Assembly: GCA_035516255.1 (NCBI GenBank) | Contig: DATJAL010000016.1 | Location: 80,629-144,628, forward strand | Direction of reading: 5' to 3' | Length of the DNA: 64,000 nucleotides | Origin: Chitinivibrionales bacterium | Lineage (GTDB): Bacteria > Fibrobacterota > Chitinivibrionia > Chitinivibrionales > FEN-1185 | In this document: piece after piece, positions 2,360 to 63,510 of the stretch | Numbering within the stretch: the first letter of the stretch is position 1 | Layout: each line of letters starts with the position of its first letter | Translations under genes and position numbers: made by a program | Notes under the pieces: model-generated | What the model was told of the DNA's origin: nothing | Databases searched by the model: none | The model's input: the letters and a program-made list of their open reading frames with translations, nothing else

Positions 2360-3637
2360 ATGTTCGAACTGCAGAAAAAAAACGAATTCGACCTTGCGCT
2401 GATCCTTGCCGCGCTTGCCCTGTGGACCATCGGCGTTCTACTCGTGTATTCCGCCACCCACATCTACGATGCGGGGCCGCTCATCCATTCCACGAGGAAT
2501 CAAATCATCTGGATCATCATGGGGCTTTTCATCATTCTTCTCGTCACCTCGATCCCGGCCCGGTTCTACTTCTCATTTGCCTATGTGATGTACGGCGCTT
2601 CGCTGCTGCTGCTTTTGTACGGTGTCTTCACCGGCGTCATCAGCAAGGGAGCGGAACGATGGGTGTCCATCGCAGGCCTCCGCCTGCAGCCGTCCGAGTT
2701 CGCCAAGATCGGCCTTCTGCTCGCGCTCGCCCGGTATTTTTCCACCAAGACCGTCACGCTGGAACGCTTGCCGTCGTTCATCGTGCCCGGCATTATGATC
2801 TTGGCGCCGTTCGGGCTCATCCTCAAACAGCCCGACCTGGGCACCGCGCTCATTCTCGGCCTCATGTCGGTGCCCATGATGTACTGGGCGGGGCTCACGA
2901 TCCTGGAGCTTTTTTTCCTTTTCTCGCCCCTTGTTTCATTCGCACTTTCGGCAATCCCCCTTATCTTGGCCTTTACTTTTAAGACGCAAGGCGGAATCTG
3001 GGAGACCATCCCTTGGGGCATTTTCTTCGTGATCCTGTGCAGCGTGCTTTATTTTGCGCGGCCGCGGTTTCTCATCCTTACAAGCGTCGTGATTATCAAC
3101 CTGTTCACGGCCGGCATCACCACCGTGGCGTGGAACGGCGTGCTCAAGGACTACCAGAAAAAACGCATTCTCACCTTTATCAACCCGCAGATGGATCCTG
3201 CCGGCGCCGGATACCAGGTGATCCAATCCAAGGTCGCGATCGGCTCAGGCTCGCTGGCGGGAAAGGGCTACCAAAAGGGCACGCAGACGCGGCTGTCGTT
3301 TCTGCCGGAACAGCACACCGATTTCATCTTCTCGGTACTGGGTGAGCAGTTCGGACTCGCCGGCTGCATCGCCATCCTTCTTTTATTTCTTTTTATCATC
3401 ATCCGCGGATACACCACGACGCAGGTGGTGCGCAACCGGTTCACCAACCTCGTCATCGTCGGCTCGGTGTCGCTCCTTGCCTTTCACATTTTCATCAACG
3501 TCTCCATGACCCTCGGCATGATGCCCGTGGTGGGCGTGCCCCTGCCCTTTTTGAGCTACGGGGGGTCGTTTACCTTGACAATAGCGATACTGCTGGGATT
3601 TTTGTTGAATGCAAGGTACGGCAAACAAGATTTTTGA
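2360..3637 (+). CDS. rodA: SEDS-family peptidoglycan glycosyltransferase RodA (FtsW/RodA/SpoVE)
   Basis: 425-aa polytopic membrane protein with the conserved block GSGSLAGKGYQKGTQTRLSFLPEQHTDFIFSVLGEQFG and the C-terminal PLPFLSYGGS motif. Adjacent to PBP2. Confidence 0.9.
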   Translation: MFELQKKNEFDLALILAALALWTIGVLLVYSATHIYDAGPLIHSTRNQIIWIIMGLFIILLVTSIPARFYFSFAYVMYGASLLLLLYGVFTGVISKGAERWVSIAGLRLQPSEFAKIGLLLALARYFSTKTVTLERLPSFIVPGIMILAPFGLILKQPDLGTALILGLMSVPMMYWAGLTILELFFLFSPLVSFALSAIPLILAFTFKTQGGIWETIPWGIFFVILCSVLYFARPRFLILTSVVIINLFTAGITTVAWNGVLKDYQKKRILTFINPQMDPAGAGYQVIQSKVAIGSGSLAGKGYQKGTQTRLSFLPEQHTDFIFSVLGEQFGLAGCIAILLLFLFIIIRGYTTTQVVRNRFTNLVIVGSVSLLAFHIFINVSMTLGMMPVVGVPLPFLSYGGSFTLTIAILLGFLLNARYGKQDF

Positions 3638-3689
3638 TTAAATATTCATGTGGGGCAAGTTCAGCCTGCCTCGTAACTACCAAAACAAT

Positions 3690-4075
3690 CATGGCGCCTG
3701 CCGGTCACGGCACCGGTTCTACCGCTTCGGGTACTTCCAAGGGTCCGTCCCTCCGGTCTCGCCTTCGGCTCGGGCTGCCACGGCGCGAGGCCGCTTCGCG
3801 GCGGCGTCCGGGCAGCGCCGCGCTCCAGCGACGGCCTGCGGTCGCCCCTGGCGCGCGGGCATAATTCCTTCTGCCGCGACTCTTTCCCCCTTATCAAGGG
3901 GGAGGCCGCCGAAGGCGGAGGAGGATGCACCGCAACCAAGGCGTTACGGAAACGCGACGTCCGCAAGGCGGATGCGTTGCGCTTCGCGCGCGTTTCTGTT
4001 TGAAGGGGTGTGGGTGCAGATCGCCGCGCCACCCCAGGGGAAACCACGAAGTGGTTGCCCCACCAGACATTTTTA
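3690..4075. repeat. Composite GC-rich intergenic repeat (family B modules m2-m4 plus a partial module E)
   Basis: Long stretches match 54117-54510, e.g. CCGTCC(C/T)TCC(G/A)GTCTCGCCTTCGGC(T/C)CGGGCTGCCACGGCGCGA, GGCGTCCGGGCAGC, and GGGGTGTGGGTGCAGATCGCCGC. Shorter matches occur at 40575, 44770 and 56555. Confidence 0.75.
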
Positions 4076-4169
4076 ATTTGAAAAGTCTATACCACTAATC
4101 CCCATTCAGATTTTATTTTTCAATGGGTAACTTATTGTTCAAAAACCCAACAAGGAAAGCATCTCATCC

Positions 4170-5012
4170 ATGCACCCCATTCTGTTCAATATCCATCTCA
4201 TGAAATTCACCGTCCCCATCCACTCCTACGGGTTCATGCTTGCCGTGTCGTTTCTGTTCGGCATCTGGTTTGCCGCGACGCGCGCAAAAAAGGAGGGCCT
4301 GCATCCCGACGTGATCACCGACCTGGGCTTCTGGGTGATCCTCGCCGCGATCGTGGGCGCGCGCCTCTACTACGTGGTGCTTCACTTTGAGGAATTCCAA
4401 GGCGACCTGCTTTCCATCATCAATCCGTTCCATGCCGGCAACCTCGGAATCGGCGGGCTCGTGATGTACGGCGGGTTCATCGGCGCGCTGGTCGCCGCAA
4501 TAATTTACTTCCGGGTGAAAGGGGATCCGTTCCTTCCCTACGCCGACGTTTCTTGCGCCAGTCTCGGCTTTGGAATTTTTCTCACCAGAATCGGCTGTTT
4601 CCTCAACGGCTGCTGCTACGGCGCGGCCACTTCATCCGCGTGCGGCATCAGTTTTCCTTTGCACAGCCCGGCTGGCGCATACCAGCACGAGATGCACGCG
4701 CATGCGCTTCTGCCGTCCCAGCTCATCGAGAGCAGCGGCGGCCTTCTCATCGTCGTCATCATACTGCTTGTCGGAACGCGAAAAACATTTCCCGGGTTCC
4801 GCCTGTACCTCACCGGCATCATGTATGCCGTGCTGCGGTTCGCCGTTGATTTCACGCGCTTCTACACGCCCCAGGAGAGACTCGGCCCGCTGTCCCACAA
4901 CCAGATTGTGTGCATCGTGTTTTTCATCCTGTTTTCCGGGCTCATACTCAGGCACTTCCTTTTTAAAGAGGAAGATACTGCGCAACCCGGGCAGCCCAAT
5001 GCATCTGCCTGA
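4170..5012 (+). CDS. lgt: Prolipoprotein diacylglyceryl transferase
   Basis: 280-aa multi-TM protein. The N-terminal pattern (IHSYGFMLAVSFLFGIWFA...RAKKEGL) and the later GARLYYV and GGLVMYGGFIGA blocks are typical of Lgt. Confidence 0.85.
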   Translation: MHPILFNIHLMKFTVPIHSYGFMLAVSFLFGIWFAATRAKKEGLHPDVITDLGFWVILAAIVGARLYYVVLHFEEFQGDLLSIINPFHAGNLGIGGLVMYGGFIGALVAAIIYFRVKGDPFLPYADVSCASLGFGIFLTRIGCFLNGCCYGAATSSACGISFPLHSPAGAYQHEMHAHALLPSQLIESSGGLLIVVIILLVGTRKTFPGFRLYLTGIMYAVLRFAVDFTRFYTPQERLGPLSHNQIVCIVFFILFSGLILRHFLFKEEDTAQPGQPNASA

Positions 5013-40542: not shown

Positions 40543-40574
40543 AACATTTCCATTTTTTTTATCAAAAGAAATAG

Positions 40575-40678
40575 AGCGCCCCGCAGCTTCGCTGCGGCGG
40601 CCGTCCTTCCGGTCTCGCCTTCGGCTCGGGCCGCCACGGTGCGATGGCGCCGACGCGCGAAAGGGGGAACGCCCACAC
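40575..40678. repeat. GC-rich intergenic repeat, family B (m2 module plus GGGGGAACGCCCA end)
   Basis: CGGCCGTCCTTCCGGTCTCGCCTTCGGCTCGGGCCGCCACGGTGCGATGGCGC ... GGGGGAACGCCCAC. Matches 3745-3790 and 54143-54192. Confidence 0.7.
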
Positions 40679-40758: not shown

Positions 40759-40833
40759 CGGGGTGTGGCTCAGTCTGGCTAGAGCACGTGGTTTGGGACC
40801 ACGGTGTCGTAGGTTCAAATCCTATCACCCCGA
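40759..40833 (+). tRNA. tRNA-Pro (anticodon UGG)
   Basis: Acceptor CGGGGTG/CACCCCG, anticodon stem CGTGG/CCACG with loop UUUGGGA, T arm GTAGG-TTCAAAT-CCTAT. CCA is not encoded. Confidence 0.9.
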
Positions 40834-40843
40834 TTTTCTCTTT

Positions 40844-40920
<77 letters not shown>

Positions 40921-44243: not shown

Positions 44244-44769
44244 GGTTGAAAACTTAGGGTACGGGAAAAATATCGGTTCGGGGACGCGCCGGGGCGGCCG
44301 GACAACTACAAGCATAAAATAATTCGAACCAGGGCAAACCGGCGGCCACCGGGCCCTTTTTTTGTACGAACAGGACGCTCTCCTCGCGCGCCCGCGCGAT
44401 CATGCGGATTGACGGGTAATTGCTTTTTCCGCGGGCGGGTGAGCGTATAAGGAAGGTTCTTTACAGACGCTCACTTTCCGTCCGTCTTCCCCACCCCCGC
44501 CGTCCGGATTCTAAAGGGCTTCGAGAAAAAATATAGGTATTCCCTTCTCCACATGTCAAATCCAGGAATACCCGTTTCGCGGCTTCGGCCCAAAGCTTAA
44601 AAGTCAGGCGCGGGGACTGTTCCTTCCACAGGCCGCAGTGTTTCAGAACTTTCGGATCACCCCATTTTCCTCGATGAACGAAATAATCCTCATCTCTCCC
44701 CCGCATTTCGGGCACATGAGCGGGGCTACCTCGTACACACACTTAATGAGCGCGGCCCACCTCATGCGG

Positions 44770-44956
44770 CATTTACGCCTAAACGTCGTGTCCGGTTCGG
44801 CTGTCCGAGCTGGCTGGAGGCCGCGCCGAAGCGCGGTGCTGCCCGGCCCTCGCCGGCAGGCATATAGGGACCGTGGCAGCTTGAGACCGGAAGGAGAACC
44901 GGCCCCGGAAGTGGGGGCGAAAGATTTTTCGCCTCTACATCCGGGGAACCGCCCAA
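44770..44956. repeat. GC-rich intergenic repeat, family B, reverse orientation
   Basis: The reverse complement reads TTGGGCGGTTCCCCGG ... TCCTTCCGGTCTC..GCTGCCACGG ... CGGGCAGCACCGCGCTTCGGCGCGGCCTCCAG. The module order is the same as at 54117-54245. Confidence 0.65.
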
Positions 44957-44971
44957 ATTTATGTAATCTTG

Positions 44972-50819: not shown

Positions 50820-50867
50820 GACCTTACCCCGGCCCTCCGGGCCACCCCTCTCCGAATCGGAGAGGGG
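50820..50867. repeat. Hairpin repeat, family A
   Basis: GACCTTACCCCGG...CCACCCCTCTCC-GAATCG-GAGAGGGG. Confidence 0.7.
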
Positions 50868-51127
50868 AAAAATCATTACTATATCCATTCACCCGGGGCG
50901 TTGCCCTGGGTTACAAGTATTTCGCCCCTACGGGGCTTAGAAGAACAGATTTCGGCTGTCAGCCAAGAAAGACCTGATCCTTTATCTTTAACGGTATTTT
51001 TTAGGTAAAGGATTCAGTCTTTTCTTTTCTATGAAATAATGGCGGCGGCGTTGCTTCAACGCCGCCTACAACCGCTGAATCGCCCAACTGCTATATGGAT
51101 TTGTCAATAGAAGGACCGGCGCCAGGG

Positions 51128-53521: not shown

Positions 53522-54100
53522 GTGCCTCATTTCCTTCTCGCCCTCGACACCCGGCTCTTTCTTTTTTTCAACCATGCCATTGCCAACCCGGTGTTCGATG
53601 CCGTCTTCCCGGTGATCACCAACGGACGCTTCTGGATCATCCCCGGCGTGCTCGCGGCGTTCATTTTTATTTATTTCCAAAGGAGAAAGGCGCTCGTCGT
53701 CATCGCACTTTCGCTCCTCACGGTATCCGTGTCCGACCCGGTGTGCAACCGCGTGATCAAGCCGCTCGCGCCGCGCCTGCGGCCGTGCGACGCGCGCGTG
53801 CACGTCGAGGGCGGCCGGTTCCTCATCGGCATGAAAACGTCGCCGTCGTTCCCGTCGTCGCATGCCATGAACATGTTCGCCCAGGCAATGCTGTTCACAC
53901 TGCTTTACAGAAGGAAAAGGGTATGGATTACCGCGTTCGCGTTCGCGGCAGTGATCGCGTTTTCGAGGGTGTACGTGGGCGCGCATTATCCGTTTGACGT
54001 GCTGGCGGGGGCGATTTTCGGGGTGGTTGTAGGGGGTTTAATTTATTTAGGATACTTTTTTGTGATGAAGAAGTGGGATCCGGGGGTATTGAGAATTTAA
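53522..54100 (+). CDS. PAP2-superfamily phosphatase
   Basis: Motifs KP...RLRP, SFPSSHA and SRVYVGAHYPFDV (PAP2 C1-C3). Six TM helices. GTG start immediately after the upstream stop. Confidence 0.8.
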   Translation: MPHFLLALDTRLFLFFNHAIANPVFDAVFPVITNGRFWIIPGVLAAFIFIYFQRRKALVVIALSLLTVSVSDPVCNRVIKPLAPRLRPCDARVHVEGGRFLIGMKTSPSFPSSHAMNMFAQAMLFTLLYRRKRVWITAFAFAAVIAFSRVYVGAHYPFDVLAGAIFGVVVGGLIYLGYFFVMKKWDPGVLRI

Positions 54101-54116
54101 TTATTTATTAAAAAGT

Positions 54117-54510
54117 TGGGCGTTCCCCCGCTTCGCGGGGTCGGCCGTCCTTCCAGTCTCGCCTTCGGCCCGGGCTGCCACGGCGCGATGGCGCTGATGC
54201 GCCGGCGTCCGGGCAGCACCGCTCTCCAGAGCGGCCTCCAGTCCTGCCTAACGCGCGGGAATAAGTTCACTGCCGCATTTGTAAATCCCATCATGTCTAT
54301 CAGTGGGCTCTATTATTTATCTTCTTCCGCCGTGTAAAGCCCGCGCTGCCGCCGTCGCACCGCCAGCCACTAAATCTTTCCGCGAATCATGGGAGTATCG
54401 GCGCCAAAGAGGGGGTGTGGGTGCAGATCGCCGCCGCCTCCGGCATCTGCTTTTCTTTTTTGTGAAGGAGGCGGCGGAAGCTGCACCCCAGGGGGAGACT
54501 TCCCCCGCAT
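54117..54510. repeat. Composite GC-rich intergenic repeat (family B modules m1-m4 plus module E)
   Basis: This is the most complete copy. m1 is TTGGGCGTTCCCCCGCTTCGCGGGG, and m2, m3 and m4 follow. Module E follows: GGGTGCAGATCGCCGCCGCCTCC, a T-rich loop, GGAGGCGGCGGAAGCTGCACCC, then GGGGGAGACTTCCCCC. Confidence 0.8.
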
Positions 54511-54524
54511 TAATATTTTAGCGA

Positions 54525-56450: not shown

Positions 56451-56554
56451 GATGCGTACCGCCGAATCAGGATGATAAGAGGTGAGAGGAAAAATATGTC
56501 ATATCATGCGTCAATTACAATCGCCTTATAAAAGCAATCCTAAAATAAAATCCG

Positions 56555-56707
56555 GGAGTTTCCCCGCTTCGCGGGGCCGGGCAGCACCGCGCCCCGGCGC
56601 GGCCTCCAGTCGCGCCTAACGCGCGATATAATTTTCTTTCCGCAAGTTAAACGTTCAGGTCTTTTCCCCTCTCCGATTCGGAGAGGGGCCGGGGGTGAGG
56701 TCTGAAC
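56555..56707. repeat. Family B (m1, m3, m4) followed by a family A hairpin
   Basis: CCCCGCTTCGCGGGG, then CGGGCAGCACCGCGCCCCGGCGCGGCCTCCAG, then TCGCGCCTAACGCGCG, then CCCCTCTCCGATTCGGAGAGGGGCCGGGGGTGAGG (56666-56700). Confidence 0.75.
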
Positions 56708-60208: not shown

Positions 60209-60304
60209 TGGCAGAGAGGGCAGGAATCGAACCTGCCACAGACGGTGTTATCCGCCCGCCACTGGTTTTGAGGACCAGCCGGAACACCAGTTCCAACCCC
60301 TCTG
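60209..60304 (-). tRNA. selC: tRNA-Sec (anticodon UCA)
   Basis: On the minus strand: 8-bp acceptor CAGAGGGG/CCTCTCTG (one G-U), D arm TGGAAC-TGGT-GTTCCG (6-bp stem, 4-nt loop), anticodon arm GCTGGT-CCUCAAA-ACCAGT, a long variable arm, and T arm GCAGG-TTCGATT-CCTGC. It lies directly upstream of selA. The exact ends are uncertain by 1-2 nt. Confidence 0.8.
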
Positions 60305-61443: not shown

Positions 61444-63510
61444 CTATCTCGCAATTATCAAGGATTTGCTTTCCTGGCAGTTTCCGGCTTGCAACCGGCA
61501 AAGGTAAAGCCCTGCCGGAAGCCTGCCGGCATCAAACCTGACGGAGTATTGTCCCGGATTTTTCTCGCCATCTTCGACAAGCGCAACTCTTTTTCCGAGT
61601 ACCGTATAAATGCCAAGGTGGACAAGGCAGTGGGATTGGATGCCGTAGTTCAGCGTGATGGCTGCACGGGAGAAGACCGCGTGAAGTCTTGTGGGGAAAG
61701 AAAAAGGTTTTTGATTCTGCGGAAGTACCTGCATTTCGGAAAGGGGTCTGCGCCAGACCCCGCCGCCCAGGACGCCCGCAATCAGATTTCCGCCGCTTAT
61801 GGCGAGCGAGGAGACCGATGTGTTCGTGAGACCGCTGTCAAAGGCTGCCCAGGTCTTCACGCTGTCCGCGGAAAGAAAAACCCCGTTATAGGTGCCAGCA
61901 AAGATGTTGCCGCCGCTTGCCGCAAAGCAGGAGAAATCTGTGAAATTGGCAACTCCGCTTCCGACGGCCGACCACGAAGCGCCGTTGTTCGTGGAAATTG
62001 ACAAATGTGAGCCGCCGGCAAATATGCTGTTGCCGATGACGGCAAGGGCATCAATGAACACATCCGCAAGGCTGGTGTCGGTGGTGTGCCATGACGCCCC
62101 GGAGTCAGCGGAAAGAAATACACCGCAACCGTAGGTACCCGCGGCAATTTCGTTTCCGCCCACCGCAAGGGTGTTCACGGTGCGGCAGTCAAGACCGTTG
62201 GTGGCCGGGATCCACGATGCCCCATTGTCCGTGGTGCGGTACACATCGCCGCTGGCGGCGAAGACGCCGCCACCGCTCACCGCCAGTGCGTGTATATACG
62301 GGTTGGCCAGTCCGGTGTTGACCGCGGCCCAGGAGGTTCCATTGTTCTGAGACAGAAATATCCCGTCGGCGGTGCCAGCAAAAATACCGCCTCCGCTCCC
62401 GGCCAAAACGTTGATTTGCCAATTTGTCAATCCTGTATTTTTTGCGGTCCACGATGTGCCAAGGTCTGTAGAAAGAAAAATCCCCCCAGATTGTGTGCCT
62501 GCGAAAATGGTGTCGCCTTTCGCCATGACCGTGTTTACCCATGTGTTCCTTATCCCCCTGTTGACTGCCGTCCATGACGTGCCGTTGTCCGTGGAAAGAA
62601 AAAGCCCCGCCCCGGTCCCGGCAAAGAGATCGCTGCCGCTTGCCAAGATAGCGGTGACGCCCGCGTGCGCCGGCAGACCGGTATTCGCTTTTGTCCAGGA
62701 TGCGCCGTTATTCGCGGAAAGAAACAAGCCGCTTGATGTTCCGGCGAAGATGTCGCTGCCGCCCACGATAAGGGCGTTTACAACCGTGTCAACAAGACCC
62801 GCATTGGCCGCGGTCCATGACGCGCCGTTGTTTGCAGACAGAAACACCCCGTTGCCGGTGCCGGCAAAGATATTGTTGCCATTCACCGCGATCGCGCTGA
62901 CATTCGTATTTGCCGGCAGCCCCGTGTCGGCCGCGGTCCATGATGCGCCGTTATTGACGGAAAGGAACACGCCGCCGTATGTTCCGGCAAAAACGGTATC
63001 ACCGCTCGCCGCAAGAGCATTCACATAGGTATACGGGAGGCCAACGCTGGCCGCGGTCCATGACGCGCCATTGTCGGCGGAGAGATATACTCCGCCGCCG
63101 GGACCGTCATCAGGGGGTTCCCTGGCGGCAAAGATATTGTTTCCGCTTATCGCAAGCGCGGTGACAAACCCGGGCGGAAACCCGGCATCAATGGCGGTCC
63201 ACGATGCGCCGTTGTCCTTGGAACTGTGCAGGCCGCCGCCGCTCACAAGGATCCTATTGCCACTCACCGCAAAGGAATTGACGGTCATATTCGTCGAAAG
63301 GCCGGCATCTGCAGGACTCCAGGACGCACCGTTATTCGCGGAAACGTACACTCCGCCGTACCGGGTGCCGGCAAAAACATCGCCGCCGCACACTGCGAGC
63401 GCGGTGATATATGCCGCCTCGGGACCATTGGTCTGCACCCACTGGCCGACCGCCTTGTTCGTCCCGATCAACCCGACGGCAATTGCTATAACCGCCAGAC
63501 ATTTTCTCAT
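61444..63510 (-). CDS. BNR/Asp-box (Ycf48/sortilin-like) repeat protein with a T9SS C-terminal sorting domain
   Basis: The ATG at 63510 gives a signal peptide. There are about 14 tandem ~45-aa units, each with S.(D/N)NGASWT. The C-terminal ~80 aa (ITLNYGIQSHCLVHLGIYTVLGKRV...GLYLCRLQAG) is T9SS type-A-like. Confidence 0.8.
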   Translation of the reverse strand: MRKCLAVIAIAVGLIGTNKAVGQWVQTNGPEAAYITALAVCGGDVFAGTRYGGVYVSANNGASWSPADAGLSTNMTVNSFAVSGNRILVSGGGLHSSKDNGASWTAIDAGFPPGFVTALAISGNNIFAAREPPDDGPGGGVYLSADNGASWTAASVGLPYTYVNALAASGDTVFAGTYGGVFLSVNNGASWTAADTGLPANTNVSAIAVNGNNIFAGTGNGVFLSANNGASWTAANAGLVDTVVNALIVGGSDIFAGTSSGLFLSANNGASWTKANTGLPAHAGVTAILASGSDLFAGTGAGLFLSTDNGTSWTAVNRGIRNTWVNTVMAKGDTIFAGTQSGGIFLSTDLGTSWTAKNTGLTNWQINVLAGSGGGIFAGTADGIFLSQNNGTSWAAVNTGLANPYIHALAVSGGGVFAASGDVYRTTDNGASWIPATNGLDCRTVNTLAVGGNEIAAGTYGCGVFLSADSGASWHTTDTSLADVFIDALAVIGNSIFAGGSHLSISTNNGASWSAVGSGVANFTDFSCFAASGGNIFAGTYNGVFLSADSVKTWAAFDSGLTNTSVSSLAISGGNLIAGVLGGGVWRRPLSEMQVLPQNQKPFSFPTRLHAVFSRAAITLNYGIQSHCLVHLGIYTVLGKRVALVEDGEKNPGQYSVRFDAGRLPAGLYLCRLQAGNCQESKSLIIAR

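Follow-up and report, generated by a model that had tools for sequence, protein, structure and literature searches.

What is the GC-rich, hairpin-forming sequence that fills the spacer between the RodA and Lgt genes of a Chitinivibrionales bacterium, and is its fold kept for use as RNA or for its own spread as DNA? The sequence (3690-4075) lies in a stretch of 64,000 nucleotides, hereafter the window (contig C16:80629-144628 of a genome with 4.28 Mb, 61 contigs, and 55% GC; GenBank assembly GCA_035516255.1). A preliminary description had assigned it to a modular repeat, here called family B, with at least five intergenic copies whose stems are preserved by paired substitutions, and had taken these to be a structured RNA or DNA element under constraint. 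After scanning the whole genome and comparing it with others of the order, we regard family B as probably a lineage-specific, non-autonomous dispersed structured DNA repeat of the BOX/REP/MITE kind (REP, repetitive extragenic palindromic; MITE, miniature inverted-repeat transposable element) whose fold is needed for its spread. In our best reading, it is a new, elaborate member of the protein-less interspersed structured repeats, a kind that is already known.

A modular repeat with a six-helix fold

All five copies were present where they had been reported. A covariance model (R1) placed them at 3725-3843 (+), 40571-40677 (+), 44796-44928 (-), 54115-54259 (+), and 56551-56627 (+), and a repeat scan of the window connected them as well (families D6, D7, D9, D11, D13, I1, and I2). 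A whole-genome self-search of the kind proposed in the preliminary description (blastn with the five window copies as queries) returned 221 merged loci. An nhmmer profile gave 235 matches (157 with a length of ≥120 nt), and R1 gave at least 146 among the 150 candidates scored. The genome contains about 146 to 157 full copies and about 70 partial ones, an abundance far beyond chance expectation. In wetland metagenome DNA (three or four runs), contigs break at the repeat, where the summed depth reaches ∼100-fold over the flanks. The distinction between a modular repeat family and random GC-rich spacer had been drawn correctly.

The core of family B is ∼145 nt long and consists of a closing helix, P1 (GGGCGYY/RRCGC), around five hairpins, P2 to P6. 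It is preceded by an A-rich leader of ∼18 nt (-18 to -3) and then (A)ATC-TGGGCG, with a sharp boundary in the aligned 5' flanks, and its 3' end reads CCT(A/G)(A/G)CGC. The core continues into one of three alternative 3' tails. The T1 tail comprises CGGCGGCGGAGTTCCAGTTAGTCAAC, ∼10 variable nt, and GTGGCGCCGATCGGAC, and thereby closes with the 5' terminus in inverted form; genome-wide, ∼42 such tails were found by profile, 33 of them attached to a core. T2 is a hairpin that has a copy-specific stem and a CATAAGTCAAC-like loop, often with a T-run behind it, and T3 consists of CGGAACATCATCCTC and then a T-run, accompanying a subfamily with a longer 5' leader. Optional hairpin inserts occur at fixed sites, namely, at the P2 tip and between P3 and P4. 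The two main core subfamilies, alpha and beta, share this architecture and have different helix sequences (for P5, GCTGCC...GGCAGC in alpha and TTGCCGG...CCGGCAA in beta). Two pyrimidine-rich unpaired motifs, TCGGYYCTCCTTCC and CCTCCAGTC, are conserved. Many copies are truncated, internally deleted, or chimeric, and lengths change in steps of whole hairpins instead of codons.

The best-conserved unpaired motifs are CTCC-containing pyrimidine tracts (CCCTCCTTCC and GGCCTCCAGTC) located in the P3 loop and at the P6/P1 junction (54145-54156 and 54235-54244). As sense RNA, these tracts resemble the anti-Shine-Dalgarno end of 16S rRNA; the other strand reads AAGGAGG/GGAGG and resembles a ribosome-binding site.

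With hmmalign and MAFFT alignments, RNAalifold recovered hardly any structure, a consequence of helix sequences and registers that differ between the subfamilies; on the MAFFT alignment, it found the long-range closing helix, with variable pairs reading UA:20/CG:17 and UA:19/CG:19. These runs were replaced by a structure drawn by hand on 12 alpha copies (P1; P2, P3, P4, outer and inner P5, and P6), from which R1 was built, and covariation was computed on 90 copies from five species aligned to R1. Standard pairs occupied 90.0% of the cells, versus 75.0% after shuffling and 37 to 45% when the partners were slid by 1 to 3 columns; the alignment is fitted to R1, although the swaps between subfamilies are nevertheless visible in the raw sequences. 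Double-sided changes were present in 40 of the 43 pairs (470 cells), none of 500 shuffles attained any of the observed covariation values, and the variable positions of P1 read UA:49/CG:26-27. P3 was the exception, showing only C/U variation opposite G, with a sequence (TCGGYYCTCCTTCCGG) conserved as such.

The proposal that the stems are kept by paired substitutions was thereby supported. The module from which it had been derived corresponds to P6, and its three stems read exactly as described: CCGCGC-CCCG-GCGCGG at 56587-56602, CCGCGC-TTCG-GCGCGG on the minus strand at 44821-44836, and CCGCTC-TCCA-GAGCGG at 54219-54234, including the double swap of G-C to T-A. The compensatory changes distinguish subfamilies, that is, source lineages.

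Gene context, range, and competing explanations

The range of family B was determined in 81 genomes of the order Chitinivibrionales, representing 33 genera. By covariance model, the family was present in five of the six species of one genus and in none of the 32 other genera. In that one genus, it has reached ∼150 to 200 copies per genome. At the site of copy 5, the sister species G001, G002, and G005 have a spacer of only ∼30 to 70 bp from which the element is absent. At the site of copy 4, neither G002 nor G003 has a copy, and G004 has two copies of other subfamilies.

In the reading that we favor, the element would need its fold while single-stranded, during the copying or movement of a source copy. 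An enzyme acting in trans would recognize the conserved ends (P1, P2, and the CTCC motif), ends that also delimit elements with other interiors in further genera of the order, and most resident copies would be inert and drift neutrally. An effect on the host would be secondary, either by protection of transcript 3' ends or by termination through a GC-rich fold lying between an A-run and T-runs.

As had been noted for the window copies, family B lies outside genes: 151 of the 157 long copies (96%, with a crude gene caller) were intergenic, usually right after a stop codon. The gap between a stop codon and a co-oriented copy was 0 to 30 nt in most cases. Copies in the opposite orientation have their tail toward the stop codon, and in either orientation, the composite element occupies the gene-end side of the spacer, with ∼100 nt remaining before the next start. 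TAA stops were enriched (43 of 64 genes with a co-oriented copy ≤35 nt downstream, e.g., at window 54098-54100, versus 43% genome-wide), and in some genes the stop codon falls within the A-rich leader of the element. Convergent spacers were mildly enriched, holding 32 of 150 copies compared to 13% of all spacers.

Such placement would suit elements that have been adopted by the host as orientation-independent transcript-end devices, the stable GC-rich fold stopping or protecting transcripts from either side. The A-rich leader, which on the other strand becomes a U-run after P1, and 44 copies in which a T-run stands behind the tail hairpin point in the same direction, and comparable effects have been reported for REP and BOX elements (PMC3333891, PMC3049150). 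However, terminator-like sites in the window were not above those in shuffled sequence (29 versus 24.5 and 5 versus 2.5). An intrinsic terminator would have a GC-rich stem directly before a U-run and oriented with the upstream gene; family B has an A-run on its 5' side and T-runs behind T2 tails, and T-run tails were co-oriented with the upstream gene about as often as not (24 versus 20). Moreover, sister species do without the element at the same sites, and the conserved ends and the subfamily structure would be left unexplained. We consider adoption as transcript-end devices unlikely.

Alternatively, each copy might be a small structured-RNA gene or a cis-acting element of the 3' untranslated region, its six-helix fold being selected in RNA and acting via single-stranded CCUCC-type motifs, e.g., by Shine-Dalgarno pairing or protein binding. 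Several features described above are what would be expected of such an RNA: strong covariation in five helices including the long-range closing helix, unpaired motifs conserved across subfamilies and even genera, hairpin expansions at fixed sites, the C/U variation opposite G in P3, compatible with G·U pairs in sense RNA, and the position of co-oriented copies so close to stop codons that they would be co-transcribed. In contrast, the orientation of the copies relative to flanking genes, which the preliminary description had suggested mapping, was random (44 co-oriented versus 56 anti-oriented between same-direction gene pairs). In the well-supported helices (minus P3 and the two outermost P1 pairs), G·T occupied 50 cells and A·C 48, with 27 pairs showing each; since selection on individual copies as RNA should let G·U persist while removing A·C, this balance argues against such selection. 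Within subfamilies, paired and unpaired columns had diverged equally (0.135 versus 0.174, P = 0.26; 0.175 versus 0.189, P = 0.82), and the antisense strand folded slightly better than the sense strand (whole-element minimum free energy with RNA and DNA parameters), a comparison that lends no support to folding of the sense strand. A further strand test with an R/Y-collapsed alphabet was dropped, as it was dominated by spurious pairs and base composition (T being twice as common as A).

There was no conserved -35 element, only the A-rich leader, and no promoter-like site was present in 3000-4600, around copy 1. At the gathering threshold, Rfam 15 matched only tRNAs and a selenocysteine tRNA in the window and had no match to family B, and searches of copies 1 and 4 at E-values up to 10 yielded nothing relevant, TwoAYGGAY (RF01731), ribozymes, and IS605-orfB/HEARO-type RNAs included. 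Together with the frequent truncations, the genus-restricted, patchy range, and the empty or differently occupied sites in sister species, these results separate two parts of the earlier claim of a structured RNA or DNA under constraint: the covariation is real, but the step from it to an RNA under constraint was not supported. An RNA function of individual copies is not supported, and we regard this explanation as quite unlikely.

Source copies that need the fold to propagate and resident copies that drift fit the combined tests. Several independent tests (orientation, wobble pairs, strand, divergence, range, site occupancy, defective copies, and skew) agree in this and suggest selfish, scattered DNA more than RNAs selected copy by copy.

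Hairpin-rich repeats of this kind could also belong to a REP/BIME-type system (BIME, bacterial interspersed mosaic element), in which folded single-stranded DNA is moved at replication forks by an HUH tyrosine enzyme, either a REP-associated tyrosine transposase (RAYT) or an IS200-like TnpA. Of 149 family-B copies, 94 have their sense strand on the C-rich strand (94 versus 55, P = 0.002; GC skew with repeats masked), a share that is similar next to leading-strand and next to lagging-strand genes. The orientation bias (63:37) is modest and linked to replication, not to transcription. On the antisense strand, TTC triloops become C-GAA-G mini-hairpins, which have exceptional stability in DNA. A single RAYT-like gene is located 10 kb upstream of the window (G000 C16:69809-70405, minus strand; locus L030:1210-1809); its product of 199 amino acids (aa) scored 79.6 bits with NF047646 (cutoff, 80) and 28 bits with Pfam Y1_Tnp. 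RAYT is present as decayed pieces in G002 and G004 and as intact homologues in two genomes that have elements with the same ends, G073 and G022.

RAYT was nevertheless rejected as the mobilizer, the gene being present in the genome but unlinked to the repeat. It is flanked by hairpins of a different type and forms with them a small REPtron unrelated to family B. Many RAYT-positive genomes lack family-B-type elements, there is no conserved GTAG tag, and 161 of 169 copies are isolated singletons rather than inverted doublets (within 1 kb, only 4 tandem and 4 tail-to-tail pairs were found). Movement by an HUH enzyme appears about as doubtful as a function in RNA.

Matches to the first 50 nt of family B also occur in repeats from other families within the order, and reading two such repeats revealed the same ends around different interiors. 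We searched for these termini with the pattern GGGCGTTYCC...CTAACGC (80 to 200 nt between the parts), with the reversed pattern as a control. The five species of the genus had 43 to 204 matches per genome, with the maximum in G005. Elsewhere, 26 matches were found in G073, 9 in G022, 7 in G033, 6 in G043, and 5 in G012, compared to 0 or 1 with the reversed pattern. A pattern restricted to the 5' domain gave much the same picture, except in G022 (1 match versus 9 for the termini). By the end pattern, 10 of the 81 genomes were positive (G000, G001, G002, G004, G005, G012, G022, G033, G043, and G073) and the other 71 negative. The shared ends, GGGCGTT plus a hairpin plus TCGGYYCTCC ... CTAACGC, surround different interiors in at least five other genera, and their presence is patchy within genera, since g22, g32, and g1 each hold positive and negative species. 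The conserved part is thus P1, P2, the CTCC motif, and the 3' CTAACGC, the features on which recognition by a factor acting in trans would be expected to depend.

A bolder interpretation is that family B belongs to an order-wide superfamily of protein-less elements in at least six genera, marked by conserved ends (as RNA, GGGCGUU plus P2 plus UCGGYYCUCCUUCC ... GGCCUAACGC) and spread by a mechanism undescribed in bacteria. Possible agents would be a host or other nuclease/ligase, or a reverse-transcription route, acting on the folded single strand. If this were true, the CCUCC loop, which is anti-Shine-Dalgarno-like, would endow the transcribed element with a ribosome- or mRNA-directed activity. 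We consider this superfamily interpretation very doubtful.

Finally, we consider it exceedingly improbable that the copies derive from the decay of a protein gene or insertion sequence, a possibility raised in the preliminary description itself: one copy adjoins the C-terminus remnant of an IS91-type transposase and long spurious open reading frames (ORFs) cross the region on both strands, but the remnant is unique in the genome, the spacer-spanning ORFs have no Pfam match above threshold, lengths do not vary by codons, and no longer parent element was found.

Several observations weigh against the dispersed DNA repeat that we favor. The gene calls on which its intergenic placement depends are our own and crude. 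No longer element with family-B ends enclosing an ORF or a transposase was present in the genome; three split copies considered as an autonomous parent enclose ordinary genes (alcohol dehydrogenase, radical-SAM genes, and others). The only RAYT-like gene is bracketed by its own inverted hairpins, GGCCCG(C)ACCT-TCAG/GAAG-GTCGGGSC (GGCCCGACCTGAAGGTCGGG; ∼3 to 6 genome copies), and in the 81 genomes RAYT homologues do not track the repeat: G005, which has the most copies, as well as G033, G043, and G012 have none. An IS91 link was likewise rejected, as it would consist of one unrelated remnant. No recurrent direct repeat that would indicate a target-site duplication was seen by eye in the flank listings. 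The ends of family B covary but are complementary over only 5 to 7 nt, much shorter than usual terminal inverted repeats, and ∼7 nt is short for a DDE transposase; in copies with a T1 tail, the 5' end recurs distally in inverted form as GGCGCCGATC. The skew bias of 63:37 is modest in comparison with the near-total bias of IS200/IS605-type elements. Sister species provided no base-exact empty site or boundaries, their spacers being too diverged to align, and no empty-site alleles were found in the three or four wetland metagenome runs, in which contigs break at the repeat. Functional RNAs, too, typically show conserved unpaired motifs, optional hairpin inserts at fixed positions, and a closing helix.

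The window copies and their surroundings

The five copies in the window illustrate the modular build of the family, and three of them (copies 2, 3, and 5) are defective. The region 3690-4075, to which the preliminary description had drawn attention, does not consist of one element: the RodA-Lgt spacer is wholly filled by a mosaic of a leader, family-B copy 1, and two unrelated repeat modules. The 5' leader module (GTGGGGCAAGTTCAGCCTGCCTCGTAACTACC...AATC; 3645-3690, plus strand), which is associated with the B2 subfamily and has ∼15 copies genome-wide, starts 8 nt past the RodA stop codon (3637); leaders of this type are also found before other ATCATGGCGCCTGCCGG-type copies. Copy 1 itself, of subfamily B2, spans 3690-3877 on the plus strand (model match at 3725-3843, 50.7 bits). 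It begins with ATGGCGCC and the P2 hairpin TGCCGGTCACGGCACCGG, has an additional hairpin insert at ∼3717-3745, and continues with the core P3 to P6 and the P1 3' strand, CCTGGCGCG; its variable-stem tail hairpin (CGCGGGCA...TGCCGCG) is at ∼3851-3877. Across the core of this copy (3750-3840), the blastn depth is ∼120. The first unrelated module (3882-3928, plus strand) consists of the hairpins CCCCCTTATCAAGGGGG and CCGCCGAAGGCGG; it has ∼14 copies genome-wide, is often located 3' of family-B tails, and was seen after several other copies. The second (GAAGGGGTGTGGGTGCAGATCGCCGC...GGGGAAACCACGAAGTGGTTGCCCC; 4000-4068, plus strand) has ∼15 copies, including further ones at 51127 and 54409 (family D12 of the window repeat scan).

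Copy 2 (40571-40677, plus strand, 57.6 bits) contains the P1 5' strand, P2 (CCGCAGCTTCGCTGCGG), P3, P4, and the 5' part of P5. It is cut within P5, where it is joined to an inverted 5'-end fragment (GGGGGAACGCCCA), and it lies upstream of two tRNA genes (40759-40917). In copy 3 (44796-44960, minus strand; model match at 44796-44928, 87.7 bits), P4 is missing and P2 is extended by a palindromic insert (TGTAGAGGCGAAAAATCTTTCGCCCCCAC). The conserved palindromic insert TTTGTAGRGGCGAAAAATNTTTCGCCYCTACAAA, which is mini-palindrome-like and nested within the hairpin loop, lengthens the P2 tip in this copy (∼44905-44940, minus strand) and in many others. At its 3' end, copy 3 is cut after CCTCCAG and fused to the C-terminus remnant of an IS91-type (Y2 HUH) transposase, which comprises 38 aa (AALIKCVYEVAPLMCPKCGGEMRIISFIEENGVIRKF*; 44640-44756, minus strand).

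Copy 4 (54115-54259, plus strand, 109.2 bits) has the full core and begins 15 to 18 nt past a stop codon (54100). In model R1, its helices are P1 at 54120-54124/54250-54254, P2 at 54126-54131/54135-54140, P3 at 54143-54147/54154-54158, P4 at 54161-54163/54167-54169, P5 within 54174-54217, and P6 at 54219-54224/54229-54234, all on the plus strand. A tail hairpin of the T2 class (GCGG-gaataagttcactg-CCGC), whose stem varies between copies, follows at 54260-54285 (plus strand). Copy 5 (56551-56627, plus strand, 37.8 bits) carries an internal deletion that removed P3 through the 5' half of P5, leaving, in order, P1, P2, the 3' half of P5, P6, and the P1 3' strand.

Other repeats adjoin the family. 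A second repeat family of ∼200 nt stands right after copy 4 (54306-54520) and has many copies elsewhere in the genome (e.g., C42:16288-16497, C47:82551-82752, and C30:12044-12305). A short hairpin repeat, TTTTCCCCTCTCCGATTCGGAGAGGGG(CCGGGGGTGAGG), occurs beside family-B tails at 56662-56700 and 50845-50871 and 3' of several copies elsewhere. The window also contains the selenocysteine tRNA gene (60212-60304, minus strand; Rfam RF01852, 64.9 bits) and, within a long ORF region at 61860-63410, at least 10 coding repeats of ∼120 nt that are 60 to 75% alike and probably belong to a repeat-domain surface protein.

Relation to known repeat systems

We found no paper on repeats in the order Chitinivibrionales. 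Family B is closest in kind to pneumococcal BOX (PMC3049150), followed by REP/BIME (PMC3333891). BOX, built as boxA-(boxB)n-boxC, is modular, with terminal modules that pair mutually and optional internal modules; it has >100 intergenic copies within one species group and no transposase of its own, and its strong secondary structure is expected to affect co-transcribed genes. Family B shares with it ordered modules, complementary ends, a variable middle, the lack of coding capacity, and restriction to one lineage. This resemblance is one of kind: the two are unrelated in sequence, and family B occurs in another phylum (Fibrobacterota), forms a GC-rich six-helix junction instead of one long stem, has conserved pyrimidine-rich unpaired motifs and three alternative 3' tails, and has ends that are common to otherwise different elements across the order. 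From distribution, and by the same reasoning as applied here, BOX, RUP, and SPRITE were judged parasitic (Croucher et al. 2011, PMC3049150).

By their defining tests, family B is not a REP/RAYT system and is probably not a classical MITE. Like REP, BIME, and REPIN sequences with RAYT (Ton-Hoang et al. 2012, PMC3333891; Bertels and Rainey 2011, PMC3116915), it is a high-copy extragenic hairpin repeat that forms mosaic clusters with other motifs, shows no target duplication by eye, and shares its genome with one RAYT-like gene, and compensatory differences are known between REP types as well (PMC3333891). In contrast to their hairpin of 20 to 40 nt or inverted doublet, its unit of ∼145 nt has six helices and a closing stem. 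GTAG/CGTC is absent from any fixed place, CGTC occurring only inside the P3 arm of one subfamily, and the RAYT gene of this genome, with its other hairpins, does not co-occur with family B. With MITEs such as Correia/NEMIS, RUP, and ERIC, the family has in common a length of 100 to 200 bp, noncoding sequence, intergenic location, complementary ends, and many copies, some of them truncated or nested. It differs in that its ends pair over ∼7 nt only, no target-site duplication was seen, and the genomes looked at contained no insertion sequence with family-B ends.

The combination of a large six-helix fold, very clean compensatory variation, hundreds of copies, shared ends, and no recognizable transposase is not found elsewhere, which makes family B a good case for studying how protein-less repeats spread in bacteria. 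In practice, the repeats break metagenome assemblies of Fibrobacterota from peat and wetland and generate long spurious ORFs. For the organisms that carry them, repeats placed directly behind stop codons could shape transcript ends.

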